A stretch of 63,008 nucleotides of DNA, the filler included, from Reclinomonas americana ATCC 50394 (Eukaryota): assembly GCA_048213135.1 (NCBI GenBank). It is 6 parts of one record of this genome, joined end to end, with 100 filler letters (N's around TTAATTAATTAA, not from the genome) between each part and the next. Parts side by side here need not be neighbours in the genome. Positions count along the whole stretch, not along the records: positions 1 to 25,775 come from PS015020.1; 5 more parts are not named here. The stretch is one strand, 5' to 3'. This document shows positions 3,548 to 58,433 of this stretch, piece after piece. How positions within the stretch are numbered: the first letter of the stretch is position 1; the number at the start of each line of letters is the position of its first letter. Under the pieces are notes generated by a model. The model was not told the DNA's origin. It made no database searches and was given only the letters and a program-made list of their open reading frames with translations. The position numbers and the translations under genes are program-made.

Positions 3548-4639
3548 TCACAAGCACTGCCCCAGCGCCACGCACTTTTGCACCACAACTTGCGCCTCCT
3601 CCACCACGAAGCAGCGCAAGACGATTTCCACCAGACATCGCACGTCCCCGCCGTTCTCCTCCTCCACCTCCTCCTGCACCACCATCTCCTGCACCGTGTC
3701 CGCGGCAGCGCGGGCCCACTGCAGCTCACGAGTCGCCAGACCCGTCGCGGTCGACCATACCCACACGGTGCTGTCTGTGCCGCCACCCACAATGTGCTGA
3801 GCATCCAGAGTGACGGCCACCGAGAACACGGCACCGGTGTGCCCCTCCAGCCGGTGCACCTCCTGCCCGCCACTCGCCATGGACCACACACGCACCGACT
3901 TGTCTGCACTCCCACTCACAACGTGGCGACCGTCGACCGTGACGGCCACGGAGCGCACATAATCTGTGTGCCCCTCAAATCGGCGCACCTCCTCCCCGCT
4001 CGCCAGTGACCACACACGCACCGTCCGGTCATGCCCACCACTCACAACGTACTGCTCCCGATCGCGCATGCAGGCGACAGACCACACGTAGCCCCGGTGT
4101 CCCACCAGTCGGCGCACCTGCTGCCCACTCGCCAGCGACCACACTTGCATCGCGTCGTATCGACCGCCGCCCACCACGTACTGGCCGTCGGGAGTGACAG
4201 CAACGCAGACCACAGCGTCGGCATCGCCGTCGAATCGCCGCACTTCCTCACCGCTCCCCAACGAGAACACTCGCGCCGTGTTGTCCGCGCTGCCACAAAC
4301 AACGTGCTGGCCGTCGGCGGTGGCGGCAACAGAGGACAACCACCCAGTGTGCCCCACCAGCCGTCGCACCTCCTTCCCACTCTCCACCGACCACACAATA
4401 AGTGAGGCGTCGCCGTTGCCACTCACCACATACCGACCGTCGGGCGTGACTGCCACCGCCATCACACCACCCGCGACAGGTCCCTCGAATCGACGCACGA
4501 CTTGCCCGCTCACCGCCAGTGACCACAGGAGCAGCGTCATGTCGCGACTGCCACTCACGAGGTGCTGGCCGTCGGGCATGACGGCCACCGCAGTCACAGG
4601 CTGAGTGTGACCACGCAAGCACACGCTGTGCATGTGCAT
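3548..4639 (-). CDS. Intronless WD40-repeat beta-propeller protein (about 7 repeats plus acidic tail)
   Basis: 363-aa ORF with repeated VRRxxGHTxxVxxVAVTxDGxxVVSGSxDxTVRVWSLxSG units. Confidence 0.92.
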   Translation of the reverse strand: MHMHSVCLRGHTQPVTAVAVMPDGQHLVSGSRDMTLLLWSLAVSGQVVRRFEGPVAGGVMAVAVTPDGRYVVSGNGDASLIVWSVESGKEVRRLVGHTGWLSSVAATADGQHVVCGSADNTARVFSLGSGEEVRRFDGDADAVVCVAVTPDGQYVVGGGRYDAMQVWSLASGQQVRRLVGHRGYVWSVACMRDREQYVVSGGHDRTVRVWSLASGEEVRRFEGHTDYVRSVAVTVDGRHVVSGSADKSVRVWSMASGGQEVHRLEGHTGAVFSVAVTLDAQHIVGGGTDSTVWVWSTATGLATRELQWARAAADTVQEMVVQEEVEEENGGDVRCLVEIVLRCFVVEEAQVVVQKCVALGQCL

Positions 4640-4817
4640 GGGAAGGAGGGGAAAGGGGGGAATGGGTGAGTGCTTTGGAGAGAAGCAACAGAGAGATTTC
4701 TCCGCGTCTGTTGAGTGGCAGTTCGCTGCACCACTTACTGGCTGTCACCTGTGCATGCCATGGCCAGGTGCACCCATAGTACTCTTCCAATGCCGCAGCG
4801 CAACGTTCTCTCTGAAG

Positions 4818-4896
4818 AGAAGCACTTCACACAGTTGTTGTGTCCCACACTTTGTTTTCTCTTCTTCCTTTGAGCCAGCACCTACCCACATACACA
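4818..4896 (+). promoter_or_regulatory. Conserved upstream/5'UTR block of micro-peptide gene 1
   Basis: AGAAGCACTTC..TGTGTCCCACAC..TTTTCTCTTCTT..GAGCCAGCAC recurs in the same order upstream of copy 3 (6507-6564). Partial matches lie upstream of copies 2 and 4. Confidence 0.55.
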
Positions 4897-5149
4897 ATGG
4901 GATCCGCCCACAGTCAAGAACATGGAAGCTCGCACGCCGGCACCGACACCACAGTGTTGGGTAGCGACGACAGGGTGAGAGTGAACTGTTGGTTGCGCTC
5001 TCTGTTTTTGAGTGGTGTGCTCATTTTTCACCACCATCGCGCAGGTGATTAGCACGAGCACCAGTGGAGGTGTCGACCAGGATGGTGGAGCCACCAACTC
5101 ACCCAGCTACGGCCTCAGTGCAACAATTCCACTCCCGATGCCCGAGTAA
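4897..5149 (+). CDS. Micro-peptide family copy 1 (60 aa; exons 4897-4974, 5045-5149)
   Basis: MGSAHSQEHGSSHAGTDTTVLGSDDR/VISTSTSGGVDQDGGATNSPSYGLSATIPLPMPE*. 70-nt phase-0 GT-AG intron. Homologous to three downstream copies. Confidence 0.88.
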
Positions 5150-5648
5150 GCCAAGTGAGTGTGAGAGTGAGTGAGTGCGAGAACATTACCGCAATGTAAT
5201 ATTGATCGTGTGGCTGTGTATGTGTGTGCGTGCGTGTGTGTGCGTGCATGTGGCAGTACAGAACTGATGTGAGTATGTCTGTCGACACGTGCAGAGTTTC
5301 ACTCGCTCTCTCTCGCCATTTTATCATGCTTGCGTGTCACCTCTCTTGTATGTGCCTTGCACACTCTCCCTTCCACCCCCCTCTCTCTCCCTCACGTTGG
5401 GTAGTCGTGTCTCTGTGTGTATGCACCGGAACACGCTGCGCATGCAGTTGCGGTTTTTCACACGCATATCAATGCGATTTCCTCCTGCACGACTCCTCTC
5501 GCTCTCACATGGCCTTTTTCCGGCCACAGCAGGTCGCACAAGGTGCAGCTACGTACACTGGCACCACCTCACGCACTTTTGTGTGCTCGCGGACACTCCA
5601 CTGCAATTGTTCTTCGTTCTTGTGAGCCAAAACACACACGCAACACAA

Positions 5649-6058
5649 ATGGGATCAGTTCCGGGACACCAGGCACACTCGGAGATCTACGGACCCGTCG
5701 ACCACTCTTCTGTCTGCAACCCGTCCATCGTGGTGGACGAAGCGGACAAGGTGCGGGAGAATGACTGCTGCTGCAGATTTGAGTTTTTCGCGTCTTGTTT
5801 TCACACAACTGTTTGCTGCTGCTGCTGCTGCNNNNNNNNNNNNNNNNNNNNNNNNNNNNNNNNNNNNNNNNNNNNNNNNNNNNNNNNNNNNNNNNNNNNN
5901 NNNNNNNNNNNNNNNNNNNNNNNNNNNNNNNNNNNNNNNNNNNNNNNNNNNNNNNTGCGCAGGTGCACAGCTCGAGTCACAGTGGCGGTATTGAGCAGGA
6001 GGCTGTGGTCATTAATGCGCCCAGCTGCGAGCCGCCTGGGCTTCCTGGGCCCGAGTGA
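5649..6058 (+). CDS. Micro-peptide family copy 2, divergent (65 aa; exons 5649-5750, 5963-6058)
   Basis: MGSVPGHQAHSEIYGPVDHSSVCNPSIVVDEADK/VHSSSHSGGIEQEAVVINAPSCEPPGLPGPE*. Same intron position and phase. The intron contains an N gap. Confidence 0.78.
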
Positions 6059-6506
6059 TCACGAGTTACGTAGTGAGGGAGTGCGAGAAGGTTACCGCAC
6101 TGCACAACGCAGCAGTGTACCTATCAATCGTTGTGGCCTTTGTGTCATGGTGTTTCTGTGGGTGCTTGTCTCTGCTTGCTGAGTCGCACCGAGTGTCTCT
6201 TTCTGTCACCGTCCACAGTGTCAAGAAGGCGATCACTGCGTTCGAAAGCTCTCTCCGCGTCCACGCTCCTGCGAACACTGACACACATACACGCGACTGT
6301 GTTGTGCACACACAGCACGAGTGCATGTGTGTGCCTGATATCGATCGGTGGCCTTTTGATTTTTCATGTGCACGTGATCACAGTTTTTGCGCACGATCGC
6401 AGCGCACTGGTTTTTGTCGACTTTGCAAAGCCGCCTCAGCCACTGCAGTCGCAGCAGTGCGCTTGCGAAGCACTGCGATGAGCCGCAACAACACCAACCG
6501 CTGCGC

Positions 6507-6599
6507 AGAAGCAGCACTTCGAGACTTGTGTCCCACACTGTTTTCTCTTCTTGCGAGCCAGCACACTCTCTTCTCTCTTCTCTCTCTCTCTCACACACA
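6507..6599 (+). promoter_or_regulatory. Conserved upstream/5'UTR block of micro-peptide gene 3
   Basis: Same ordered motifs as 4818-4896. Confidence 0.55.
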
Positions 6600-6863
6600 A
6601 TGGGATCCGTTCACGGCCAAGAATCTGGACACTCGCAAGCTCACACCGAGACCACAGTACTGGGCGATAACGATCAGGTAAAAAGAAGAGCACCACGAGC
6701 TCTGGTTTCACTGCAGCAGTTGTTTCAGTTGCCGAATGCTGTGCCTGTGCATTTGCAGGTGACAAGCACAAGCACCAGCGGCGGTGTCGACCAGGACGGA
6801 CACGCGACCAACGCACCTAGCTACGGCGTCAGCGCATCAATGCCACTACCGATTCCCGAGTGA
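6600..6863 (+). CDS. Micro-peptide family copy 3 (60 aa; exons 6600-6677, 6759-6863)
   Basis: MGSVHGQESGHSQAHTETTVLGDNDQ/VTSTSTSGGVDQDGHATNAPSYGVSASMPLPIPE*. 81-nt phase-0 intron. Confidence 0.88.
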   Translation: MGSVHGQESGHSQAHTETTVLGDNDQVKRRAPRALVSLQQLFQLPNAVPVHLQVTSTSTSGGVDQDGHATNAPSYGVSASMPLPIPE

Positions 6864-7397
6864 GAGATCATGAGTGAGCGACTGCGAGAAGTTATCGCAG
6901 CGATAGTCAAGTGAAAAACTTGCACTTTGCAACTTGGTTGTACGGGGCAACGTGGTGCGTGCATGTATGACACTGCGGAGTGTTGAGAAGCAGCTGCAGG
7001 GCGGTCGACGTCGTCATCGCTGCACTTCGTATTCTTCACTAGTACTCTCCTTTGAATTCGATCGCGATCGTCTTGTGCACCTCGTCACGTCAGGCCTGCC
7101 TATCAGCATCTCACTCTGCAGTGTCACCCATGTGTCTGCAGCTTACTTCTTGCTTGCTGCTCATGAACGCATGCGAACGTGGTGCGCCGACATTGGGCAA
7201 TTGACTTGCAATTGTTTGCCTTCGTCGCAGCGTCGCACCCACATCACTGTTACATAGATATGCAGCCACAGTTACCGCTGCATGGCGCATGTGTGTCTCT
7301 TGCTTTCCGGCTTTCGCTTGCTGTGCACGTCGGTGTGCCTGCTGTCCCAACACAAATCATTTGCCGGCACTCTCATTCTCGAGCAAACACATACACA

Positions 7398-7660
7398 ATG
7401 GGCTCCGCCACCAGCCAAGAATCCGGAAACTCGCACGCCGACACCAACACCACGGTGCTCGGCCAGGACGACGAGGTGCGTGCGCGTGTGGAGCAGTGTG
7501 AGAACTTCTCTCAAGTCATGCAGCTGCGTTGCTAATACGACGTGGTGCTGGGTGCGTGCAGGTGCAAAGCACGAGCAACAGTGGCGGAGTCGACCAGAGC
7601 GGTGGCGCCACCAACTCGCCCAGCTTCAACATGTCGCTGCCGCTCCCCATTGACGAGTGA
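7398..7660 (+). CDS. Micro-peptide family copy 4 (58 aa; exons 7398-7475, 7562-7660)
   Basis: MGSATSQESGNSHADTNTTVLGQDDE/VQSTSNSGGVDQSGGATNSPSFNMSLPLPIDE*. 86-nt phase-0 intron. Confidence 0.88.
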
Positions 7661-8148
7661 GTGAGTGTTTGACAGAGTGTTCAACGAAAAGCATCATCAT
7701 CATCATCATGTAGTGTAGGAATGTACGTTGTTGTTGTTGTTGTTGATTGTGCATGATGAGCTGTGTGTGCGGGGAGAGGGAGAGGGAGAGAGTGTGTGTT
7801 TGGCGACGGAGAATTACTGTTATGTGTCCGTTTGTCAGTCTCTCTCTCTCTCTCTCACTGCACACACACTCGCTCTCTCTTCTATGCACACTCTCACTTA
7901 CGACTACTCGTCTTGCGTGCGTGCGTTGTGCATGCGTGTGTGCGAAAATGAAATGACAAATTGAGTGCTAGTCGTTGTTGCCGCTCGTCTTTCTCGTTCT
8001 CCTACCGCTCACTCTCTTCCTCCTCCTTGCCGCCCACCCTCCCAACGCGCAACCCGAGCCTCCGCGCATTCCAATTTTCAACACGCGCATTTTTTGATAT
8101 TTGCGCGCGAAACCTCTTTTCACCTTTTGTGAGAGCAAGCATCCGCAG

Positions 8149-11039
8149 ATGCTTTCCTCCATGCATCGCCGCTCTGGCTCTGGCTCCTCCTCGCCATCCT
8201 CACCCTCCAACACCGTCTACCCGATCATTCGCCACCATAATGGTGGCGATGTTGGCCCGTCTCACATCTCCTCTTCCTCGTCATCCTCTTCTTCCTCCTC
8301 CTCGTCATCATCATCGTCGTCTTCCGCGGGCGCAGCCTCGGCAGTGCGTCACCCGCCCATCGATCCCGGCGAGTGCGTCTATGTCATCACGCTGCTGTAC
8401 CACACGCGATGGCCACAAGTCATGTGTCACTACCGACGCTGCATCGACTATGGCGATGGGCCAGAGGCGTGGATGGACTCGGAGATGCTCCCGTACGAGA
8501 GGAACCCGCAGTTGCGCGTGGCGGAGAGAGCAGAGCGGTCGAGGGGCACGCACGCACGCATTCACACTCGCACTCGTGCAGACGATGGCGCGAAATCAAG
8601 ATCAGAATCGACACGCGCATTGGGGCGCTGCAAGACCGTCCGCTCGTCGAGTTCTGCTTCCACAACAACAAGGGCGAGGTGTGTGTGTGTGTTCTTGTGC
8701 TGGAGAACAAAGAGGAAAAAGGTTCTGAGATTCCTTTTTTTCTTTTGGTGTGTCGCTGCGTGTGTGTGTGTGCAACAGTGGGACAACCCGCACAAGGCAC
8801 CGGGTGCCAACTACACCGTAGAGATGACGCAGTGTTGGGCGGCGAACAAGGCCACTGCTGCGGCCTCCGATTCCATGGATTCCGAAGACAGCGGGGTGAG
8901 TGACGTCTTCCGTCGTCGTCGCCGGACCGGAGGCCTGTCTGTTGTGCTCACGTGTGGGTGGGTGGGGGGAGCACAGCACTCACTGGTGATCACCTCGGTG
9001 TTTGCGCTGTGCGATGGACGAGTGCGGCCGGTGATGTCGGAGGATCTGCGTGCGCCGGGCATGCTGCTGGTGACAGACCTCGATGGCACATTGGTGAACG
9101 GCGACGGAGCATCGGCGGACGATCCACAAACGAAAGCATTTGTGGAGCACTGGGAGGTGCGTGGGGAGTGGTGGGAGGTGGGGCACGGAGAGATGCGTCG
9201 TCGTCGTCGTCGGCGACGAGTTGGTTGAGCGCGAGAGAGAACCTTGCCTTTCTGCCGCCTGTACTGGGCCAAGAGTAGTGCCGCCCGCCAGTTGCAACCA
9301 CGCGCAGTGAGAGATGCTTCTCTGTTGCACGGGATCCTCGTGCGGCTTGTGCACCAGTCGTCCCTCCGTGCACTTGTTACCAAATTAGGCAAATTTGGAA
9401 GAAATTCTCACGCGCACATGCGCAGAATGAGCAAACGCTCCGCGGCTCCGTGCTCATGTACGCCACCGGCCGCAATGTGCGCCACTTCCTCGACCTCCAG
9501 CGAGCCACCGGATTGGCGCTGCCGGACTACCTGTTGGCCGGCGTCGGCAGCACCATATATGTTCTGCGTGGAAGGTGCGCTGCTGCTGCTTCAACCATGC
9601 GCTTGCTTTGCCCCTTTTTCCACGCTCTCCTTTTCCTCAGCTCGCTTCCACATTTCCTCCCATTTTGTCATTGCTTTCCTTCCTCTGCCTTTTCTTATTC
9701 GCTTCACTCCTCTCTCCATCACTCTCTCAATCACTTTTCTTGCCCCCTGTTTGTTATTGCCTCTCTGTCTTCCCCCATTCTTGTTTTGTCTTTGTTTTCA
9801 CCTTTTTTTCTTTATCGCTTCCACTCTCTCCTTCCTCTCTTGCTTCCATCCGCCTCTGTTCCCTTCCCTCTCCTTTCCTCTCTTTCCCTCACCCCTCTTC
9901 CCGCATCCCTTCCTCTCCTCCCCCTCCCTCAGCCCCTTCCCTCACCCCCTTCCCTCACCCCCNNNNNNNNNNNNNNNNNNNNNNNNNNNNNNNNNNNNNN
10001 NNNNNNNNNNNNNNNNNNNNNNNNNNNNNNNNNNNNNNNNNNNNNNNNNNNNNNNNNNNNNNNNNNNNNNNNNNNNNNNNNNNNNNNNNNNNNNNNNNNN
10101 NNNNNNNNNNNNNNNNNNNNNNNNNNNNNNNNNNNNNNNNNNNNNNNNNNNNNNNNNNNNNNNNNNNNNNNNNNNNNNNNNNNNNNNNNNNNNNNNNNNN
10201 NNNNNNNNNNNNNNNNNNNNNNNNNNNNNNNNNNNNNNNNNNNNNNNNNNNNNNNNNNNNGCCTGGAGCGTGGAGCGTGTCAACCGCGTAGCCGCCAGCG
10301 AGTTCCCGTTCCTCACCGTGCAGGTCGAAGAGCAGGGCGACTCGTCGCAGTACAAGCGCGGCTTTGTGATGTGCATCGAGGAGGCGGTGGAGGCGGTGGG
10401 TGGAGGAGGTGCCACGCTTCGCGACGTCGTGGAGCGCATGGAGCGCGTCTTTGGCGAGCAGTGTGATGCGCGTGTCATTGTCAGGTGCGCAGCTGAGAAA
10501 GAGAAGAAGAAGAAGAGAAGCACCGCCTTCCCCTCCTGTGTGTACTCATGATGCGGTGCAGTGGTCACAGCGGCTACCGTTATGTCGACGTGATTCCGCG
10601 CACGGCGGGCAAGCGCGCCGCGATCGAATACCTGATATCCTCCGGCATGTTGCCCGCGGAAGTCGTCGGCGCTGGCCGCTTCTGCGCCTGCGGGGACTCG
10701 ACCAACGATCTAGACATGCTGTCGGCCGACACGGAGGGCAAGTTGCGCTCTTCTTTCTCTTTTTCGTCATGGCACTTTCCCTCTTCTCTTCTCACACACA
10801 CAAGCAGGTGGCGATCGGTGATTGTTGTCAGTCGCTCCAACCACGACTTGTTGGAGTGGTGCGAGAAGCACCCGCCTGCCAAGCCAGGCTGGCGGTACTT
10901 TGCCGACCATTACGGCAGCGGTGAGTGCCACCGCCATTTGGGGTCAGCGAACACCTTTCGCGTCTTCTCACATTGTGTGGGCGTGTGTGTTGCAGGAGTG
11001 GTGGACGCTCTGCGCTGGTTCGGTTTTGCATCCTACTGA
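8149..11039 (+). CDS. HAD-IIB sucrose-phosphate-phosphatase-like hydrolase with N-terminal CBM25-like starch-binding module
   Basis: HAD motifs LLVTDLDGTLV, LMYATGRN, YVDVIPRTAGKRAAIEYL, ACGDSTNDLDML. The N-terminal ITLLYHTRWPQVMCHY...W...VEFCFHNNKGE/WDNP...GANY resembles CBM25/26. Start codon is uncertain and there is a gap at 9963-10260. Confidence 0.82.
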
Positions 11040-11111: not shown

Positions 11112-14100
11112 TTAGTGCCTCTCTGCCGATCCCACCACCGTTGCCGCCTTGCTGTTCAACCAGTCCTCCACGTCAAACACGATGCGCTTGATGATGCCAT
11201 TGCCCATGGATTGCATGTCGGCGAAAATGTCAAACACATTCAGTACGCACTCGCGTCGTCGCAGCTTCTCCACCTACAGCCCACACAACACAACAGGTGA
11301 GCACGACACTTGGCAAACAAAATGGAGACAACAACAACGAACGTTGGCAGATGCCAGTGGCAAGCACATGGCCGCCGCACTCGCAGTCATCTGGCGCGGC
11401 AAGAACGCCTTGGGCCGGAAGACGACTCCGACACGCGAGCGCACGTCACCGTCGTAAAGGAAGAGGGCCACCTCACCAAACCGCCACTGCGAGACGAATG
11501 TGAGAGACGACAACTAAACAGGATCGCAAGCTGGAGACTTGTCGCGTACCGTCAGCTCGCGCACGAGTGCCTGCGTCGGATGGAGACCAACAAAGAGCTC
11601 GCGATCCACCGCGAACGATGACAGCATACCACTCTCGCTGTGGTGCAGCAAGAGCAGAGCGTCGAGGTCGGCCAGCTCGGGCTTGAACAAGTCGCGCAGC
11701 GTTTCACTCGCCTGTGACGCATTCATGGCCATGGTCGAGCGAATCGTATCGACGGCAAGCCGTGCACGGTGGAGGAAGCGACCAAACACCTGAGAGACAA
11801 CCAAGAAAAGAAAAGTGTGAGAGATGGCACAAGAATGACAGCATTCAACTGCCGAGCATAAACTGTCAACCAAACACAAAGTTTCTCAGTCTCTCTTCAA
11901 GAATCACTTTCACATTGACTCCGCCTGTCTTCCACACTTCATTCCTCTCTTATCTCTTCCATTCATTATCCGCTCCCGTTCTCCTCCGCCTCTCTCTTTC
12001 TCCCTTCCTCTCAGTAGCTCACTCTCCACTGCCTTCTCCACTTCCACTTCGCCTTCTCATTTTCCGCCGCCTCCCTCTTCTCCTTTTCTGACTCTCCTCT
12101 CCCTCCCTCTCTCTTCCACTTCCACTTCCTCCTTTTCATTGCCTTTGCCTCTCACTTCTCCTTTCTTACTCTTCTCCCTCTCGTCTCTTCTCACCTCTCA
12201 GTCGCTCTCTCTCCCTTCCCCAGTATTCCCCTCCTCCACCTCTTCTCCTCCCCGCCCCTTCCCCAGCATATTCCTTCTCTCCTCTCACCTCCTTTGACGG
12301 CGCCAGACCCATCATCAACGCCGGCATCGGGTGCTTCGGCCCAAACGTGACATACATCGTCGGACTGGTGCGCTTCTGCACTGTGGCATCAAAGTTCGAC
12401 TGCAACTGCGCCAGCTGCACGGCCGTCAAGTCGCCCTCCAGATCGAGCACTAGCGGAGTGGAGTCCCACGGGAACGTGGCCACCAGCGCCAGCACACGGC
12501 CGAGCGCCGCCTGTCCGGTGGCCGGTGCCGTGGTGTACGGCCCAAAGCCGCTGGCATGTCGCGACACCTCGTCGTCGCCCAGGCCCACATACACGGCCAC
12601 CGTCAGCAGCTCCACCAACTCATCGCGAATGTGATCGGTGAGCATCTGTGAGTGCACCCATCGCTTCACCAGGCTGCACAAACAGGACCGAGTCAGGCGA
12701 CACGAAGATGATGAATCTGCAGGTCTGTCTCTTTCTCTCATGAGCTCACCGAACAGCCTTCGAAAACGATGGGTACTTGGTGGCCACCGAGTGCACCAAC
12801 GACGAGAATAGTGGTCCATCGCGCAGTAGCGCGGTCAGGTAGCGACCGCGATGCGGGTCACTCTGTGTCGCCAACCGCAATTCCTTGTCCACATGGAAGA
12901 AGGCGCGGAACACGAATCCATTGTGATAAATGTCGATGAAATCGTTGGTGATCTGCGACTGAATGCCGTTCTCGCGCAAACTGCACGCACGCACAGTCAG
13001 CGACTCAGAGTTCTTCACCCCGTTCCTTGACTGGAGAATTTGCACACGCAACAGTTCCACGATGCGCACAGCGAAACCCTGGCGGCACTTGACCACGGCC
13101 TCCAGTTGGCCCGGCCACCTCGCGCTGCTCTCAAACTCCAACACAATCTCCACAGGGTCCGCGGTGCACTTGCTGGTGAACAGAGCAGCGTTGGCCGAGC
13201 TACTGCCACCCGGGAACGCGCCTGCGCGCTGGTTCGGAATCGGCGGGCACACACTCGAGTACCGCAGATCTGCCATAATGATGATTAGCGCGCAATTTGA
13301 TTCCTCTTACAGCTAGCGCATTGGTGACGAAACGTGGAGAGGCCGCTGACACGGACTGGATGGCAAGCGGCAGCGCAGACGTGTTTCGCAGCATGCTCGA
13401 CAACGAATCAAAGGCCTCACGCAACGGCGCAAAGATGGACGACACATCTGGTACACACACAGTGGGCGTGGTCAGCACGATGCGCTACACCATCATATAC
13501 GCAGTGCGCCGATTCCTCACCAACGCTCGGGTCCAATCGCGAGCTGTGCACAGCCTCGTCGAGTGCCGCGTCAGTCTCCGCGAGCCCCGTTACGTCGACC
13601 TCCACCGACGGTCCGCCGTGGTGCAACTGCAGAATGTACTTGGCAATGGCGCCGACAACCAGATGCCTTCGTGGCAGCGGGAAATCCCACACTGCGGGTG
13701 GGCGATGGCTTTTTTCAGACACATAAACGCACGCCATGGACTTGCGAGATCGCGTACCGACAGCGTGCAGAATGGTACCGTCACGGAAACGACGCATCTC
13801 GCACTTGGCGCCCCAAAACGCGCGGAACGCCTCTGCCTCCTCTCCCATCTCACCCGACGGGCCCTTGTCCACGTTGCGCGACACATGCTCGGCGTTCAGC
13901 ACCGCGCCAAAGAGCCACTCGTCGGGACCGTCACGCAACACCCTGTGGGAGGAGAGGTAAGACACACCCAGACACTGAGCACAAGCGTTACTGCTCACCG
14001 CACAACGCGAGCTCGGTCTGTGAGTCCCCTCGCCAGAGTGGCCTGCATGGCTTGCGCCGCTGCTCTCCGCCACTCGCTATTGCAGAGGGCTGGTTCGTCA

Positions 14101-16310
14101 AAGTTGGCGTCTCCATCGTCTGGGTTCGGCACGTGGCGCACCCGGAACACCACGTCGTACGAGAGCATCGGGTGCAGTCGAGTGGTGAAGACGCTGGCAA
14201 ATGCCTCCACACCCGGGCACTTGTCGAGCCAACGCAAACACGCTGTAGCATCGGTGCGTGCCTGTGTGTGCCGCTCACCGCATGAGAAACCCCGAGGATA
14301 GCCTGATCATCCCATCTCCCGCACAACACACGCACTCTCGCACAACACACGCACCATGTGCATCGCCGCTGCCGATATCCTCGAGAACAAGTTCAGCGTG
14401 TGTGTGGGATCAACCAGCACGCACGCAAAGTGCTTGCAGAACGATTGTAAGACCTGCATCACGTGCAGAAGAGCGGGTTAGCGTGCCATCCACACGGTAC
14501 ACACTCAAACACATACAACAAACCTCCGCCGACGGCGTCTCTCCAAGTTCATTAATCATGCCAACGCCGGCCGCAAAGTCGGTGACCGCTGCAACAAACC
14601 TTCCCATGAGTCACTGGATGGTGCACTCCCACATCCACCAAACATCAACGCACCCACAAACTGCATCAGCACACGCAGCGCCTGGTATGCATTCATGCCG
14701 GGCAGCACGCGATGCTGAGTGATCAGGTGCACCAGCAACATGTCGACAAGGAAACCGTTGAGGCCGTCGTTGGAGTAGGTGCTCAGTTGCGAGTGTGCGA
14801 CTTGAACGGCAGCACTGTGACGCTGGTACAACCACACACGCCCGAGACGAGCAGCATCCTGCGCGGCCGGACAGCGCGCCATCACCGCCGCACACAGACG
14901 CAGGTGCGTTTCGTACAGCGCATCCTCTCGCACGCTCGAATTGTAGTCGGGGGTAGCCGGCTGCTGGGGATCTGCAAGCGTGAAGTGGTCAGGCGCAGAC
15001 ACACCAAAATATCCCCACTTGGCACACACACACACACCATTCGTGTCGAGTCCGGTCAATCGCACGCAGTTGCGGTCGGGCATCAGCTTGCGCACCGGGA
15101 ATAGATCAGCATCATAGGTCAACAGCACGCGCACGCGATAGTGCATCGTGGGCAACGCCTCCAGCGGCGAAGGCGACTGCTCCAGGGCGGTGGCGGCGGC
15201 GGCCGCCGGTGAGAATCGCGGAAACAGAACCAGTACGGGCTTGCGTCGGTCGCCACGAAAGCCCTCCACGCACACCAGTGGGCGGAAGGCCGCCGACAAT
15301 TCACTGCCAGCATCACGCAGCACGTGTCGCACGTGGTTCACCAGAATGGCCAAGTACGCCAGTCGCTTGTCAAAGTACTTGTGTTGCACGTAGTCGCGAT
15401 CGAGAATGCACCCCTGCGTGGCAACGTCAGGCGACAAACCACCGAGCTACGCAGCGTGCACACACTCCCCTCACGCACCGACGGCATCTGACACGCCATG
15501 TCCACATTCAGCACGGGCTTGGCCAGGCACTGCCGCAGGTACGATCCCACCAGCGCAAATCGAGCAGGCGCCGCAAAGTGCAGCGCTGCCGGTGTCACTT
15601 GCGACGGATTGCGCACCACATACTCGTCCCCGTTGCCGGCCACATCGCCATGCACATCGACCACCGCCTCCAGTGGCGGCAGCTCGCCGACCAGATCCAA
15701 CACTGATCGATCGCCATTCCACTCCACCTCCGACAGGCACTGCTGCAGCGCGCGAAGTTGCGGGTCCAGACGCTTCTTGCACTGCGCATAGTCGACGCGG
15801 ATCTCGCGTTGCAACTCGTCCAACTGTGCAGACGCCACCCCCATCAGCAACACTTTTAGAGAGAGTGATTGACAAGAGACCGACCTGCAACTTGAGCAGA
15901 TTGTTGGCGGAAATCGCCTCTGTTTCGCGCAACAAGAGAGACTCCTCGGCAGTCGGCGGCCGATACAACGACGGCCCTCGTCCATTGGTGCGCTGACGCT
16001 TCTGCGCAGGTCGTCCATCGTCGTCTTCATCACTATATGCTGCTCCTCCTTCCTCGTCACTGCCGCCATTCTCCTCGTCATCATCATGCGAGGCCATGGG
16101 CTCCTCCTCGTCGTCGGCGGCGTCGGAAGAGGGCGGGGCCATGTGCTGTTGATGTGAATCAGCAGATGCGCCACCACTTCCACTCACGCCCGCCATGAAC
16201 TGCAGAAAGCCGTCGTCTCCGCCACCGCCAAACGCAGCGGCGGTGTCGTCGTCATCGTCGGCAGCAGCTGCAGCTGCAGCCTTCTTCGGCAGTCGACTGC
16301 GTTTTCCCAT
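11112..16310 (-). CDS. NOL6: Nucleolar protein 6 / U3 snoRNP protein Utp22 (Nrap family), multi-exon
   Basis: LVGSY...NVDMACQMP, DYVQHKYFDKRLAYL, TPDYNSSV, FRAFWGAKCEMRRFRDGTILHAV, LEFESSARWP, and C-terminal VLNVFDIFADMQSMGNGII. Alternative ATG at 16337. Confidence 0.93.
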
Positions 16311-18281: not shown

Positions 18282-19751
18282 ATGAGTGCCGAGGCAGCCA
18301 CATCGTGGGCGATTGTGCTGCATGGTGGCGCCGGAACCATCAGTGAGTACTGTATCGTCATTGTCGTCGTTGCGGTGCCTGCATGCTTTCCATGACGCAT
18401 TGTGCAGGCCGCGACTCATTCGAGCGTGTGGCCGACGAGTATCGTGCGGCTCTTCGCGCTGCTGTCGAGGCGGGCGAGGCGATCTTGCGTGAGGGAGGCG
18501 CGGCGGTCGATGCCGTGGAGGTCGGACTGGACGCAGTCCTTTTTGTGTGTCGCGTCACTCAACTCGCTCACCTCCGCATCGTGCAGGCCGCGGTGCGATC
18601 GATGGAGGACTGCCCACTGTTCAACGCCGGACGCGGCTCCGTGTTCAACGAGCGAGAGGAGCACGAGATGGATGCATGCATTGCCGACGGTTGGGAGCGA
18701 TCGCTGCGATGCATAGCCATCGCCCTCCACTGACCCCCTTCTGCGTGCTCTGCAGGCGGCAAGGAGGCGATGGGTTCGGTGACCCTCGTCAAGACGCTGC
18801 GGCATCCGATTGCGGCCGCGCGTCACCTCATGGATCGGTACGGAGTGCTCACGCTGGGCGGCGAGGTCGGCGGGCGTGTTTGTGGTGGTGGTGTGGCGTG
18901 TGGTGAGTGACTCACACGCGTACGCAGAATGCGGAGCGTGTGGCCATAGAGGCCGGCTGTGAGCAGGTCGATCCGACGTATTTCGATGTGGATCGCCGAC
19001 GGGAGCAGCTGCGAGCTGCCAAAGCAGCTGGCATGGCCATGCTGGATCACGGTGGCAAGCGAGAGGCGCTGACGCGTGAGCCGCACGGATTGGCGGGTGC
19101 CGTGCACCGCGCCGCCACGGCCGTGGCCATTGACGGTGTGCTGCATGTACATGTGCGTCCTCTGTCGTGCGCGCAACTCATGATCGTTTGCGCCACAGGC
19201 AAGTTTGGCACGGTCGGTGCGGTGGCTGTCGACATTCGCGGCAACGTGTGTGCCGGCACCAGCACGGGCGGCCTCACGAACAAGCTGGTGCAGTGTCGTT
19301 TCTCAGCAGGCATAAGTGATGGGAGCTGCCACTGACCCCTTTGCACCACAGGTCGGACGCATTGGCGACTCACCCACGCAAGGCCACTCGACAATCGCAC
19401 GCAACGGATGGTGCGGCGTGTCGACAACAGGCGTTGGTGAGGTGATGATGTATCACTGTGTGGCCTACGATCTGTATTCGCGCATGCGATACGGCCACAT
19501 GTCGCTGCGACAGGCTGCCGACTCTCTTTTTGACGAGGAGCTGCCCGCCGAAGTCGGGGGCATGGTAGGCATCGATTGCAGATCGGGCGAGGTGCGTACG
19601 TGTGACGACCGACGTGGATTTCGTGGCCACTGGCACTCGCTCACTCACTCCACCCGTCACCGCGCAGATTGTGATGAAATACACCAGCGACGGTATGTTC
19701 CGTGGGTGGGCCACGGCCTCGGAGAAGGGCGTGGCAATTTGGGAGACGTGA
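18282..19751 (+). CDS. ASRGL1: Isoaspartyl peptidase / L-asparaginase (asparaginase-2, Ntn hydrolase)
   Basis: AIVLHGGAGTI, MEDCPLFNAGRGSV, EMDACI, autocleavage GTVGAVAVD, TSTGG, GRIGDSP, TGVGE, GMFRG. Confidence 0.93.
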
Positions 19752-19870
19752 CGATGTCGACAACAATAACAGGCTGTCGAAACACATGTATATTCTAGAT
19801 ACAATTATTTCTAGATGCAAAACAACAATTAAACATCTCCACCACCCAACGACTGTACACGTGATGACAA

Positions 19871-22800
19871 TCAGACGTCACCGAGATCATCACCGTTTGT
19901 TGTGGCATCACCGTCGCCAAGCAGCTCGCGCAGTCGGTGCTCCGGCAATCGCAGGCCTTCGTCGGCAAACTGGCGACGCCGGTCGGCATGCTCGCGGCTC
20001 TTCCTGGCCTTGACCAGCGCCTTGCGGCGCTGCTTTTGAATCTTGCGCTCGGCCAGCAGCTGCGGGTCCAGTTGTGCTTGCTCTGCACGGCGCTTGCGAC
20101 GGGTTTCCGCCACTCGGTCGCGTGCATCTTCGTATGCCGTCATGAACGCCCCATGGCCGACAGTCTGCCGGATCAAATCCGACACCTCGCGTGCCAGCGC
20201 AGTCACCGTCTCTGCGAGTTGGAGTAAGTACACACGATATCGGCGTCACCAAATCATCACCATCGCCACGCACCAGGCAGCTGGTCGTTCGAGAGAAGCT
20301 TGTGCACCGGCACCAAGATGACGGGTAGCAGCGGTAGAACGCGCTCGCCGCCAATCTGCACCGTCACGGCGGCCAGCAAGCGCAACACCGTGGTTCGCTG
20401 GCATCATTCGAAAGTCCGCCGTGAGTACACAACAAACGCCCAATGATCGAGGCATACACACTCACCACCAAGTCGCTATTGCTGACCAGCGCGTAGAAGC
20501 CGACCTTGCGCAGCACCGCACGCACCAGCTTGTTGTGTGACGCTTGAGTCGCCGTCAGGCCAGAAAAGTCGTCCGAGGCGTGCGGCGGCACATCGGCAAA
20601 CGCCAGATTGAGCATAAATACCGCATTCTTCACGACCTGCACCGCCATCTCCTCGTCCAAGTGGGCGCTCTCCAACTGCGAGTGCAGTCGATGCAGCAAG
20701 CTGTGCGCATTCTTCAGCAGGAATTCTCGCGCCTCCTGCGCATCGGTCGACGCCTTGTCCGCCACCACCAGGGCGCACAGCGATCCGAGGTGGCGCATCG
20801 CAGACGAGCGTACCCACACATGGCGGTGCTCCAACAGCTGCGCCAGAGATGGCCACAGCGGCTGCGGAAGTGGAATGCGAGCGAGTGAGCACAGGAAAAT
20901 GTACATGGAGGAGTCGCGCAGAGCACTCAAACGCAACTCTCAGGACGTCGGAGAACGGGCGCACCGACGTGTGCCGCGTCACCTTCTCCAGACACTGCAT
21001 GCAGTGGTACGCCGATTCCCACTCGCGGCGCTGCACCAGCTCGACGACCACCGGGTCACTGGAATCCCTTTCGGAGATGAACGCCTGCAGCTCGTCCTCG
21101 TCGACTCGCAAATCTGTTCGACCGTGACCGGCGGCCAGCTGGTTGCGCCACTCCGCCTTCTTCTCCTGCATCTCGGCTTGCACCAGTTGCAGGCGCACGC
21201 GCACCTCCTGATGGATCTGCAAGTCGGCTTCGACAGCCGTCTCCAGCACCACCTGCATCTGCGGCACCAGCTCCAGCACCACGTCCAACATCTTTTCGCC
21301 GAGGGCCTCCACCGCCAGCGTGGCGCACTGTGCGTCAAGATGTGAGTAAAGGAAAAGGCGGAGGTGACTCGCGTCGCATGGACTCACCAATGCCGACAGC
21401 GACCGGAACTGCTGGACGCGCTCATCTGGCTCCACCTGATCGGCACCCTCCGACATCCACACAGTGATGAAGCGCAGCAGAAGGCGCATTTGAGGCNNNN
21501 NNNNNNNNNNNNNNNNNNNNNNNNNNNNNNNNNNNNNNNNNNNNNNNNNNNNNNNNNNNNNNNNNNNNNNNNNNNNNNNNNNNNNNNNNNNNNNNNNNNN
21601 NNNNNNNNNNNNNNNNNNNNNNNNNNNNNNNNNNNNNNNNNNNNNNNNNNNNNNNNNNNNNNNNNNNNNNNNNNNNNNNNNNNNNNNNNNNNNNNNNNNN
21701 NNNNNNNNNNNNNNNNNNNNNNNNNNNNNNNNNNNNNNNNNNNNNNNNNNNNNNNNNNNNNNNNNNNNNNNNNNNNNNNNNNNNNNNNNNNNNNNNNNNN
21801 NNNNNNNNNNNNNNNNNNNNNNNNNNNNNNNNNNNNNNNNNNNNNNNNNNNNNNNNNNNNNNNNNNNNNNNNNNNNNNNNNNNNNNNNNNNNNNNNNNNN
21901 NNNNNNNNNNNNNNNNNNNNNNNNNNNNNNNNNNNNNNNNNNNNNNNNNNNNNNNNNNNNNNNNNNNNNNNNNNNNNNNNNNNNNNNNNNNNNNNNNNNN
22001 NNNNNNNNNNNNNNNNNNNNNNNNNNNNNNNNNNNNNNNNNNNNNNNNNNNNNNNNNNNNNNNNNNNNNNNNNNNNNNNNNNNNNNNNNNNNNNNNNNNN
22101 NNNNNNNNNNNNNNNNNNNNNNNNNNNNNNNNNNNNNNNNNNNNNNNNNNNNNNNNNNNNNNNNNNNNNNNNNNNNNNNNNNNNNNNNNNNNNNNNNNNN
22201 NNNNNNNNNNNNNNNNNNNNNNNNNNNNNNNNNNNNNNNNNNNNNNNNNNNNNNNTCATTGAATTCTATCCGTCTGCGTGGTTCCTCTGGTGGTTCTCAC
22301 ACTTGCAGCGTGCCCTTTGTCGCAGATTGACTTCTCTCTCCGACTGCTGGCACACGGGCTCAAGGCGCAGGGTCTGCCACTCAGCGAATTGGTCGCGCTC
22401 CTCGACCCGTTCATGCCGCTGCTGCGTGATGCTGTCCTCACGAAGCACGCGGGAGTGTTGCACCCGACGATTAAGGCAGTGACGTCGATGCTCAAGTTCA
22501 CGCTGCCGTCCACCAACGATGTAGTGACAGGAATTCTGGCGCACGTGTTTGACCTCCTCAAGGTCAGATCGCGGACAGTGGTTGTGTGGTAGTAGGGAAA
22601 GAGACTCATTGATGTTCACGTGCCGACACAGGACGTGGGAACGGCGAACCCCGAGACTGTGGCTTCCTGTTTCAAGTTCCTGACGGCGGTTCTGCATCGA
22701 TGCCCGGCAGTCACGCTCACCAACGCGCAGCTTAAAGTGCTGCTCAGCTTTGTGACGGTCGATCTTGGCACGCACGTCAAGCAAGCGGCCGCGCTGGATC

Positions 22801-23652
22801 TTGTCAAGGTGTGCACTTGATTGCCGTTTTTTTGGCAACTCCCCGAGACGACTAACAAGGAGGGATGCAGGGTGTGGTGGACCGCCGTCTCCTGACTCCG
22901 CAACTTTACGACGTTGTGCGCCAGGTCAGCGAGCTGATGGTGCGCTCGCTGCAGGCGCCGATCCGAGAGAAATGCGCCGGCATCTACGGTCGTTTCTTGC
23001 TCGACTACCCGCTAGGTGTGTTTGTGCAAGTTTCTCTCTACCGATCATTATTGCGCACTCCGACGCTGACCACTCTCACGCGCACCTGCAGCGGCAAAAC
23101 GACTGGAACAAGAGTTGGAGTTCCTCATTGCCAACCTGGAGTACCAGCATGAAGCCGGTCGGATGAGTGCACTGTCGGCACTGCACTACGTGGTGCAGAA
23201 CTTCCCCGTGCCGGTGTTGACGCCGCGCGCCGAGTTCTTCTTCCTGCCACTGGTGGCACGGCTGCAGTCGGACCCGTCGCATGTGTGTCGCGTGGAGGTT
23301 GGCAAAATCCTGCAGCTGCTGCTGACGCGTGTGGAGCCNNNNNNNNNNNNNNNNNNNNNNNNNNNNNNNNNNNNNNNNNNNNNNNNNNNNNNNNNNNNNN
23401 NNNNNNNNNNNNNNNNNNNNNNNNNNNNNNNNNNNNNNNNNNNNNNNNNNNNNNNNNNNNNNNNNNNNNNNNNNNNNNNNNNNNNNNNNNNNNNNNNNNN
23501 NNNNNNNNNNNNNNNNNNNNNNNNNNNNNNNNNNNNNNNNNNNNNNNNNNNNNNNNNNNNNNNNNNNNNNNNNNNNNNNNNNNNNNNNNNNNNNNNNNNN
23601 NNNNNNNNNNNNNNTACGTACGTACGTACGTACTACGTACGTACGTACGTAC

Positions 23653-23716
<64 letters not shown>

Positions 23717-25091
23717 GACCTTCTCGGCCGACAGCATGCTCTTGCAGTCCCTGCACACCGCGGCGAATGCTTTCATACGAGAACGTGAGCAGGTCGCGCA
23801 GTTTCACCGACGGGTTCACGCGGATGCCGGCCACGATGCGGAACAGAGCATCCTCCAGGAGGTGGAAGCGCTCCTCACCAATCGTCTCGATCATTTCGGT
23901 CTGTTGAGGCCGCAAACATCGGTAAGCACAAAGAAAACACACACGCCACATTCACACACAAACTCTCTCTCTCCCTCTCTTTCCAACTCGCACCTGAATC
24001 GGGGAAATCAAGAGTGTGACACTGGGATTGAACTGGCATACGCGAGCCAACAGCTGAATGCCCTCTGGCGCTCGAGTCGTGCGCGCCTCACGCAGTGCGG
24101 CAGCAATGGCGTCCACCTTGCGCTGCTCCGCTGCTGCTCCTAGAATATCGTCGAGTAGCGTCTGCGCAGTTGCACATGTTCCATTAGCACCTCTTCACCT
24201 TTTGCCTACTTGCTCCTTCTGCCTTCCCCGACAAACCTCCATCAGTTGCGGCAAACAGTGGTCAATGTCGCCGGGCTGAAGCGTAGGCTCCAGTGCCTCC
24301 AGCACGGCGTACAGTGCATGTCCACGCACGTGAATCTGATAACCGTGTTCCAGAGTCTTGTTCAGCACCATTACTGTGTACTGCAGGAACTCGGCTCCAA
24401 GCTCCAAGCACACGCCGACCAAGGCCTTGCGGGCGGCCTCTCGAATCTGCGCACCAAATAGTAAGTATGCAGTCACATCAGCATCACCACGCCTCATCAT
24501 CTTCTTCTCGAGACGCACATCATCCTCCCGGCTGCGCAGACGGTTGGCCAGCTCCTGCAACAGTCGTGGCACCTGCGCGTCCCAGTGGCTGCGCGGCAGG
24601 ACTCGAATGACGTGCACGATCGCCTTGGTGACGGGCACCCGCACGCTCGAGGTCTTGTCGTCGGCGCCGACGTAGCGGTACATCATTGGGATGATGCGGA
24701 CCTCAAACGTCGACACGATGCGATTGGCGAACTCCTGCCGATGCTGCAGCGTCGCTGCCTCACTGTCAACGGCCATGGTGTCCTCTTGCTCCTCCGCCTC
24801 ATCGTCCTCAGCGCCATCCTCCTCCTCCTCTCCACCTTCATCGTCACCACCCTCCCCATCCTCTTCCTCCTCCTCCTCCTCTTCGTCGTCATCATCGACG
24901 CCATCCACTTGCATGTCGCCTTTGGCCATGTCGCCGCCATCCTCATCTTCATCCCCGCCTTCCTTTCTGCCTCCACGACGACGCTGCCGTGCCGAGCTGC
25001 TTGGTGCAGTCAGACTCGATGCTGAGTCGCCGAGCGCCTCGCTGTCACTGATCTGGAACGAAGAGCGTGGAATGGCACTCAAATCTGTCAC
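19871..25091 (-). CDS. UTP20: SSU processome component UTP20 (DRIM), C-terminal part; interrupted by gaps and an inverted contig
   Basis: VRVPVTKAIV, LRSRE..IREAARKALV...LG..FL, GYQIHVRGHAL, GDIDHCL, HVWVR, and C-terminal VGHGAFMTAY...DPQLLAERKIQK. Confidence 0.88.
22309..23338 (+). CDS. UTP20: UTP20 internal exons on an apparently inverted contig
   Basis: IDFSLRLL, LDPFMPLL, CFKFLTAVL, PQLYDVV, FLLDYPL, LEFLIANLEYQHEAGRMSAL, FFFLPLVARLQSD. These fit between the flanking minus-strand UTP20 parts. Confidence 0.85.
23615..23712. repeat. (TACG)n-like tract followed by (CT)n microsatellite at a contig end
   Basis: Directly visible. Confidence 0.9.
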
Positions 25092-25373
25092 AAAACGAGT
25101 ATTGAGTCTATGCGTCGGGAAGGAACAANNNNNNNNNNNNNNNNNNNNNNNNNNNNNNNNNNNNNNNNNNNNNNNNNNNNNNNNNNNNNNNNNNNNNNNN
25201 NNNNNNNNNNNNNNNNNNNNNNNNNNNNNNNNNNNNNNNNNNNNNNNNNNNNNNNNNNNNNNNNNNNNNNNNNNNNNNNNNNNNNNNNNNNNNNNNNNNN
25301 NNNNNNNNNNNNNNNNNNNNNGTTGTGCAGAGATGATGGTGGCTCATCGTGAACTGGTTTTTTGTGCGCGCAG

Positions 25374-25745: not shown

Positions 25746-25819
25746 GTTCCGTGTTTTATTTGATTGTTGTTGCTGNNNNNNNNNNNNNNNNNNNNNNNNN
25801 NNNNNNNNNNNNNNNNNNN

Positions 25820-25831
25820 TTAATTAATTAA
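25820..25831. other. Artificial scaffold linker TTAATTAATTAA (also at 36699-36710, 40646-40657, 52070-52081, 56024-56035)
   Basis: Identical 12-mer with stops in all six frames, always between two short N runs. Confidence 0.97.
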
Positions 25832-25906
25832 NNNNNNNNNNNNNNNNNNNNNNNNNNNNNNNNNNNNNNNNNNNNGCTTATGTAAAAAAACAGGGTGTGC
25901 CGCGCT

Positions 25907-36580: not shown

Positions 36581-37012
36581 ACACAGTCGGCGGAGAGGGA
36601 AGAGGAGGAGAAGAAGGAGAGGAAACAGAGAGAGGGGGGCGGGGAGAAGGGAAANNNNNNNNNNNNNNNNNNNNNNNNNNNNNNNNNNNNNNNNNNNNTT
36701 AATTAATTAANNNNNNNNNNNNNNNNNNNNNNNNNNNNNNNNNNNNNNNNNNNNGAGAGAGAGAGAGAGCGCGAAGAGTGCGAAGAGAGACAGGGAGAGA
36801 AAAAGCAGAACGGGTACCGAATGAGGGACCGAGTTGCAGAATGGAGAACGATGGAGCGTGAGCAACGAAAGTGATTGTGGCAGCAAGAAGAGGACTCAGA
36901 ATGACACAAAGGAAGATGTGAAGAGTGCAAGAGAGAGACAGAAAGAGAAAGAATGAGTGACTGATGAACACGAAAAGGTTCGAGAAGACATTGATAAGCC
37001 TGTGCAAGCGAA

Positions 37013-40600: not shown

Positions 40601-40779
40601 GNNNNNNNNNNNNNNNNNNNNNNNNNNNNNNNNNNNNNNNNNNNNTTAATTAATTAANNNNNNNNNNNNNNNNNNNNNNNNNNNNNNNNNNNNNNNNNNN
40701 NAAGCGAGAGAAACCGACAGATTCAGCGGGACGCATCACGGTGTACGGTGCTCAAAGATTCGCTGCCCGTGTTGGCAAC

Positions 40780-41695: not shown

Positions 41696-53044
<11,349 letters not shown>

Positions 53045-53143: not shown

Positions 53144-58433
<5,290 letters not shown>

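Follow-up and report, generated by a model that had tools for sequence, protein, structure and literature searches.

A tandem array of four two-exon genes in Reclinomonas americana appears to encode an orphan family of acidic, possibly myristoylated micro-proteins

A stretch of 63,008 nucleotides from Reclinomonas americana ATCC 50394 (NCBI GenBank assembly GCA_048213135.1), six parts of one record joined end to end and here called the window, carries at positions 4897-7660 of its plus strand four paralogous genes, each with two exons and 58-65 codons. The genes, c1 to c4, were read and translated within 4500-8200 and are listed in Table 1. We propose that they are independent members of a family that arose by tandem duplication long ago and encodes acidic, disordered and lineage-restricted micro-proteins of about 6 kDa, which may be N-myristoylated at Gly2. 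For this explanation as a whole, lipidation included, we would put the probability at roughly 0.45.

Each gene has one phase-0 GT..AG intron, placed after codon 26 (codon 34 in c2), and GTG opens exon 2 in every copy. All four start codons share the context A(-3)/G(+4) and begin Met-Gly-Ser, and all four stop codons stand directly 3' of an LP-x-[PD]-E motif. An earlier note on this DNA had placed here four same-strand genes, 0.75-0.95 kb apart, with a single phase-0 intron at an equivalent position; its coordinates and layout hold, and the measured start-to-start distances are 752, 951 and 798 nt. The exon families D1-D3 were recovered by a repeat search of the window without any gene model. 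When the eight exon peptides were compared with the whole 63-kb window by tblastn, every match at E < 0.01 fell in one of the four loci, and the array therefore has four members in the window. A WD40-repeat gene on the other strand limits it on one side, and unassigned sequence after 7660 on the other. Retention of the c3 intron would yield an 87-residue form; the c1 and c4 introns hold in-frame stops. In the c2 intron a (CTG)n run at 5811-5831 abuts a 124-N assembly gap, where the microsatellite probably broke the assembly, and because the gap lies inside the intron its length of 212 nt is nominal.

The columns invariant in the family fall into four elements, namely the initial Met-Gly-Ser, the core S-x-S-x-SGG[VI][DE]Q, N-[SA]-P-S and, at the C terminus, LP-x-[PD]-E. 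Copy c2 is far more diverged than c1, c3 and c4; beyond MGS, all that it retains is this core, N-A-P-S and the C-terminal motif. Its first exon does not match those of the other copies significantly in tblastn (E 1.8-3.1) and was assigned by position, start and splice site. The long consensus of the earlier note describes c1, c3 and c4 and fails for c2, where the core motifs alone are kept.

Constraint was measured among the paralogues within the window. By the Nei-Gojobori method, the ratio of non-synonymous to synonymous divergence (dN/dS) was 0.24-0.48, that is, below 1, in all six copy pairs; dS was 0.54-0.75 among c1, c3 and c4, and it exceeded 1.1 in comparisons with c2, for which the ratio is rough because of saturation. 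Synonymous sites had changed significantly more than non-synonymous ones in each of the six pairs (one-sided Fisher p 0.00014-0.036), which share history and are not independent. In a recount over six frames the proposed frame (plus strand, frame 0) was the only one both stop-free and low in dN/dS, in three pairs of three; the antisense frame with the same wobble positions also had a low ratio, as expected, but contained 2-6 stops. Coding indels of +24, -9 and -6 nt are all multiples of three, and the ungapped introns measure 70, 81 and 86 nt. Among c1, c3 and c4, identity was 0.70-0.81 in exons, 0.57-0.58 in introns and 0.58-0.64 in flanks beyond 100 nt, with 0.51-0.61 in shuffled controls. 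In a crude simulation that used substitutions alone, taken to the observed synonymous distance, at most 0.24% of copies kept ATG, GT, AG, open frame and stop all intact. G+C content at third codon positions was 0.62-0.86 in the four genes and similar (0.67-0.75) in their neighbours. The earlier claim of purifying selection, with the protein kept while third positions, introns and spacers diverged, agrees with the dN/dS values in every pair, and the four units are very probably real coding genes under such selection.

The products have masses of 5.8-6.6 kDa, isoelectric points of 4.05-4.7 and net charges of -6 to -8. Each has one aromatic residue and at most one Lys or Arg (0-1 per protein), with no basic residue in the first 25 positions. 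Ser, Thr and Gly together account for 24-27 of the 58-60 residues in c1, c3 and c4, which are free of Cys; c2 has two Cys, both after residue 20. No copy contains a hydrophobic segment (maximum 11-residue hydropathy below 0.9), and the products are without internal amino-acid repeats. The peptides had previously been described as acidic and nearly devoid of Lys, Arg and aromatics, and these values fit that description. In a charge-hydropathy plot, three of the four copies lie on the disordered side. An AlphaFold2 model of the c3 read-through with paralogue rows had a mean predicted local distance difference test score of 55.9 and a predicted template modelling score of 0.16, with exon-coded parts lacking secondary structure, a weak result in that the alignment was shallow and 27 residues were intron-coded.

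Searches for relatives used exon pieces and the c3 read-through in place of spliced proteins, and such short, low-complexity queries weaken the negatives. Seven of them (exon by exon, plus the c3 read-through) matched no Pfam family at E <= 10; no PDB chain was found at E <= 10, and the ESM Atlas gave no usable match. A word-indexed search of 5.8 billion proteins with the 87-residue c3 read-through open reading frame (ORF) returned one unscored candidate and no relative. The paralogue profile A5 had no match at E <= 0.001 among 1,835,955,588 representative proteins; three of its exon-2 rows start with M instead of V, the initial GTG having been read as Met, and two exon-1 rows include three intron-coded residues as an alignment anchor. 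In one metagenome scan 21 stretches fitted a 10-residue pattern and one passed tblastn; metagenome stretch L001 was set aside as an 11-residue chance match within an unrelated frame. A keyword search found no paper on such a family, and as the literature is not searchable by sequence this is not proof of unpublished status. The source organism's own proteins were also absent from the matches of the neighbouring genes (WD40 and UTP20 queries), and predicted-protein libraries probably lack tiny spliced eukaryotic genes, which weakens the homology negatives further. The earlier note recognised no known family, and with the Pfam, PDB, word-indexed and profile searches empty the genes make up an orphan micro-protein family.

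Each copy is preceded by an equivalent upstream block (Table 1). The TGTCCCACAC box within it shows no enrichment across the window (9 matches, 5.9 expected), and its exact form is common to c1 and c3 only. From GAGC to ATG the distance is 25 nt in c1, 25 in c2, 45 in c3 and 17 in c4. Since this spacing does not change in threes, the upstream stretch is non-coding; as there is also no ATG between block and start, Gly2 is the true second residue. The GAG/CC(A) element may be a motif close to the promoter, or it may be a 3' splice site, the latter either as the acceptor of an intron in the 5' untranslated region or as a spliced-leader addition site. Downstream of the stop, an 18-nt motif follows c1 and c2, its two matches in the window comparing with 0.03 expected; by eye it recurs after c3 with a one-base deletion, and it is absent after c4.

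Every copy retains Gly2 and Ser3 although their codons have changed synonymously (GGA/GGC, TCC/TCA), and this includes c2, whose first exon is otherwise diverged. Position 6 is Ser in c1 and c4, the two copies for which MGxxxS had been noted before, and Gly in c2 and c3. The Gly after Met that N-myristoyltransferase (NMT) requires of its substrates is present in each copy, with no in-frame coding continuity upstream. The PROSITE-type N-myristoylation pattern is G-{EDRKHPFYW}-x(2)-[STAGCN]-{P}; all four copies match it, against a background of 13 of the 1713 ATGs in the window, these four included.

We propose a model where the initiator Met would be removed and the exposed Gly2 N-myristoylated co-translationally. 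The lipid would then provide weak, reversible binding to internal membranes, or would occupy a lipid-binding pocket of a partner protein; weak and reversible because a second membrane signal (Cys, basic patch) is missing and the chain is strongly negative. For docking or phosphorylation the disordered tail may present its three conserved motifs, S-x-S-x-SGG[VI][DE]Q, N-[SA]-P-S and LP-x-[PD]-E. Four copies would supply dosage and some diversification, with c2 as the diverged member.

Several points weigh against this model. There is no basic residue at positions 7/8, which are Q/E in c1, c3 and c4 and H/Q in c2; the favoured Ser6 occurs in two copies of four; and the proteins have neither a nearby Cys for a second acyl group nor a basic patch. 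Their net charge is -6 to -8, and on such a chain a single myristate should be a poor membrane anchor. Passages of PMC7048800 state that a positive residue at position 7 favours NMT catalysis, as a preference and not an absolute rule, and that NatA, a possible competitor of NMT, generally prefers negatively charged Gly-starting substrates. For Leishmania, an excerpt of PMC4372256 reports disagreement in 30% of cases among predictors that had been trained on other eukaryotes. Also in Leishmania, a portion of PMC3491706 reports that a HASPB reporter with myristate but no palmitate failed to arrive at the plasma membrane and was retained at the Golgi and in autophagosome-like vesicles, the Gly2-to-Ala form being cytosolic. 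The roles given above to the three conserved motifs are pure inference, and no orthologue was found, so the evidence for constraint comes from paralogue comparison alone. Lipidation is a guess at motif level, to which we would give somewhat less than even odds; if it occurs, the tether should be a reversible one, to internal membranes or a partner protein, and not a stable surface anchor. The lipid-anchored peptide family of the earlier note thus stands as a real paralogous coding family, while its anchor rests on a weak N-terminal pattern only. It is possible, with the odds leaning the other way, that these are a previously unseen family of myristoylated, disordered, acidic micro-proteins with a reversible tether and a docking-motif tail, missed by standard annotation and protein databases.

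Could the units be a non-coding tandem repeat with ORFs that are open by chance, or pseudogenes in decay? The genome is GC-rich, with 173 stop-to-stop frames of at least 150 codons in 63 kb, and the homologue searches are empty; but the constraint is frame-specific, the indels come in threes and the signals are intact in all four copies despite a dS of 0.5 to more than 1, which leaves this reading close to refuted. We also find it improbable, if less so, that the units are not stand-alone genes and the 60-residue products are mis-modelled, the blocks belonging to a longer or differently spliced transcript, for example one whose upstream exons join at the tract 5' of each ATG, or being cistrons of one long precursor. 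The pyrimidine tract followed by AG (GAG/CCA), 17-45 nt 5' of each ATG, does resemble a 3' splice site, and the c3 frame is open upstream as far as 6378. However, the AG-to-ATG distance differs by 20 and 8 nt, so that an upstream exon could not keep frame in all copies. The start context, the stop position and the frame-specific constraint end exactly at the proposed gene limits, and flank identity beyond about 100 nt is at background. A spliced 5' leader or precursor processing would, in any case, leave the encoded peptide unchanged.

A stronger competitor accepts the acidic micro-proteins as real and dispenses with the lipid: Gly2 would be NatA-acetylated or free, and the proteins would be soluble and disordered in cytosol or nucleus, for example as phospho-regulated binders or chaperone-like acidic peptides. 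In that case the conservation of Met-Gly-Ser would serve efficient initiation (G at +4), removal of Met and a stable N terminus. The acidic or neutral positions 7-8, the lack of basic residues in the first 25 positions, the NatA preference already cited from PMC7048800, the net charge without a second membrane signal and the membership of +4 G in a common start context are all in keeping with this. On the other hand, conservation of Gly2 and Ser3 through synonymous codons in all four copies, c2 included, exceeds a preference for G at +4, and position 6 stays within the small residues of the pattern in each. We regard it as a serious possibility that nonetheless has the odds against it. Very unlikely, in our view, is that the products are dually acylated proteins exported non-classically, like the HASP proteins of Leishmania. 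A small, hydrophilic, acidic product with a Met-Gly-Ser start would suit that role, as would tandem clustering of related genes, described for the HASP/SHERP locus in the same portion of PMC3491706. Yet palmitoylation is given there as essential for HASPB export, and no copy has a Cys in its first 20 residues, c1, c3 and c4 having none at all. The products also lack internal repeats and show no similarity to anything in the word-indexed and profile searches.

Table 1. Features in and around the micro-gene array, with positions counted along the window
Feature	Position	Strand	Details
c1 gene	4897-4974 + 5045-5149	+	60 residues; intron 70 nt
c1 exon 1	4897-4974	+	26 codons, Met-Gly-Ser start; repeat family D3
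c1 intron	4975-5044	+	70 nt, GTGAGA..GCGCAG, phase 0; in-frame stop upon retention
c1 exon 2	5045-5149	+	34 codons + TAA; tblastn; repeat families D1, D2
c2 gene	5649-5750 + 5963-6058	+	65 residues; intron 212 nt including 124-N gap 5832-5955
c2 exon 1	5649-5750	+	34 codons, diverged, 8 more than in the other copies
c2 intron	5751-5962	+	GTGCGG..TGCGCAG; holds assembly gap 5832-5955, so 212 nt is a nominal length
c2 exon 2	5963-6058	+	31 codons + TGA; tblastn E 0.001-0.005 against other second exons
c3 gene	6600-6677 + 6759-6863	+	60 residues; intron 81 nt
c3 exon 1	6600-6677	+	26 codons; translation, tblastn
c3 intron	6678-6758	+	81 nt, GTAAAA..TTTGCAG; stop-free, in frame
c3 exon 2	6759-6863	+	34 codons + TGA; translation, tblastn
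c4 gene	7398-7475 + 7562-7660	+	58 residues; intron 86 nt
c4 exon 1	7398-7475	+	26 codons; translation, tblastn
c4 intron	7476-7561	+	86 nt, GTGCGT..GTGCAG; CTAAT branch-like site ~30 nt 5' of acceptor
c4 exon 2	7562-7660	+	32 codons + TGA; shorter by 2 codons
c1 upstream block	4841-4896	+	TGTCCCACAC box, pyrimidine tract, GAGCCA, then CA-rich ATG-free leader; repeat family D10
c2 upstream block	~5596-5648	+	equivalent to that of c1
c3 upstream block	6527-6599	+	equivalent to that of c1
c4 upstream block	~7340-7397	+	equivalent to that of c1
Pyrimidine tract + GAG/CC(A)	4850-4877, 5606-5629, 6540-6560, 7360-7385	+	one 5' of each start codon
Post-stop motif after c1	5176-5193	+	TGCGAGAANNTTAYCGCA, 18 nt
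Post-stop motif after c2	6082-6099	+	TGCGAGAANNTTAYCGCA, 18 nt
Post-stop motif after c3	6883-6899		one-base deletion, by eye
WD40-repeat gene	3548-4744	-	repeat units 65-76% identical at DNA level (families D5-D8)
S6PP-like	10.5 kb
Nrap (Nrap/Nol6)	12169-15446	-
Ras-like GTPase	16.7-17.2 kb
Asparaginase_2	18347-19795	+	profile split over three frames
UTP20	19874-25343	-
Ank/RING, UCH, discoidin-domain and glycerol-3-phosphate dehydrogenase pieces	further along the window
Join between parts	25776-25875, 36655-36754, 40602-40701, 52026-52125, 55980-56079		44 N + TTAATTAATTAA + 44 N; artefact

The window is eukaryotic and gene-dense. The WD40 neighbour of c1 drew 689 generic matches to multi-WD40 proteins of metagenomes, bacteria and fungi (best 53% identity), and the interval 4745-4896 may be a shared promoter region, that gene being transcribed away from c1. 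The asparaginase gene has three apparent introns of 62-66 nt with GT..CAG ends (GTTGGG..TGCAG, GTCGGC..CGCAG, GTGCAG..CACAG), each with a CTGAC or CTCAC element 15-25 nt 5' of the acceptor; their removal restores a sensible protein, all as read by eye. Given such introns, those of 70-86 nt in the micro-genes are ordinary for the locality. Two genes of ribosome biogenesis, Nrap/Nol6 and UTP20, share a strand and stand near each other, with the Ras-like GTPase and asparaginase genes in between. The UTP20 piece had one protein match, and its Atlas rows were uninformative. Searches of the window with Rfam and for tRNAs gave no match. Spacers are dense in microsatellites such as (CAT)n, (GTT)n, (CA)n, (CT)n and (GAGG)n-like runs, for example at 7680-7745. 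The TTAATTAATTAA at each join, an artefact and not biology, we take to be a six-frame stop linker of the kind used for contig joining; N makes up 5985 of the 63008 letters, about 9.5%.

If our reading is true, a eukaryote in which annotation probably misses many small genes gains a lineage-specific micro-protein family. The array would also be a test case for N-terminal lipidation of a strongly acidic, signal-poor peptide, since its four paralogues have diverged to different degrees and all keep Met-Gly-Ser. Protist genomes commonly contain orphan small genes, the functional claim stays at motif level, and no long-standing question is opened by it.

The nearest analogue we can point to is the pair HASPA and HASPB of Leishmania. 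These too are small, hydrophilic and acidic, begin with Met-Gly and lack a signal peptide or membrane helix; the HASP/SHERP tandem locus likewise clusters related, lineage-restricted genes, as passages of PMC3491706 and PMC2946902 describe. HASPB differs by its need for a Cys next to Gly2 for palmitoylation and by variable amino-acid repeats, whereas the window proteins have no N-terminal Cys and no repeats. The profile A5 and word-indexed searches, made without direct comparison to HASP sequences, found no homology, and the window genes carry an intron. We therefore treat the likeness as an analogy only, not as membership.

Known NMT substrates share with the window proteins a Gly after Met, a small uncharged residue at position 3 and a small one at position 6. 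The Lys/Arg at positions 7-8 that favours catalysis in the excerpted account of PMC7048800 is absent here, and the acidic surroundings favour NatA. In size (58-65 residues) and in the absence of homologues from the searches, the proteins resemble micro-proteins from small ORFs, which are under 100 residues long and mostly young and lineage-specific; annotation easily overlooks such genes, according to a part of PMC13143143. Unlike upstream ORFs or the ORFs of long non-coding RNAs, the window genes look like ordinary spliced genes with flanking signals of their own, in a four-member paralogous family under measurable purifying selection.

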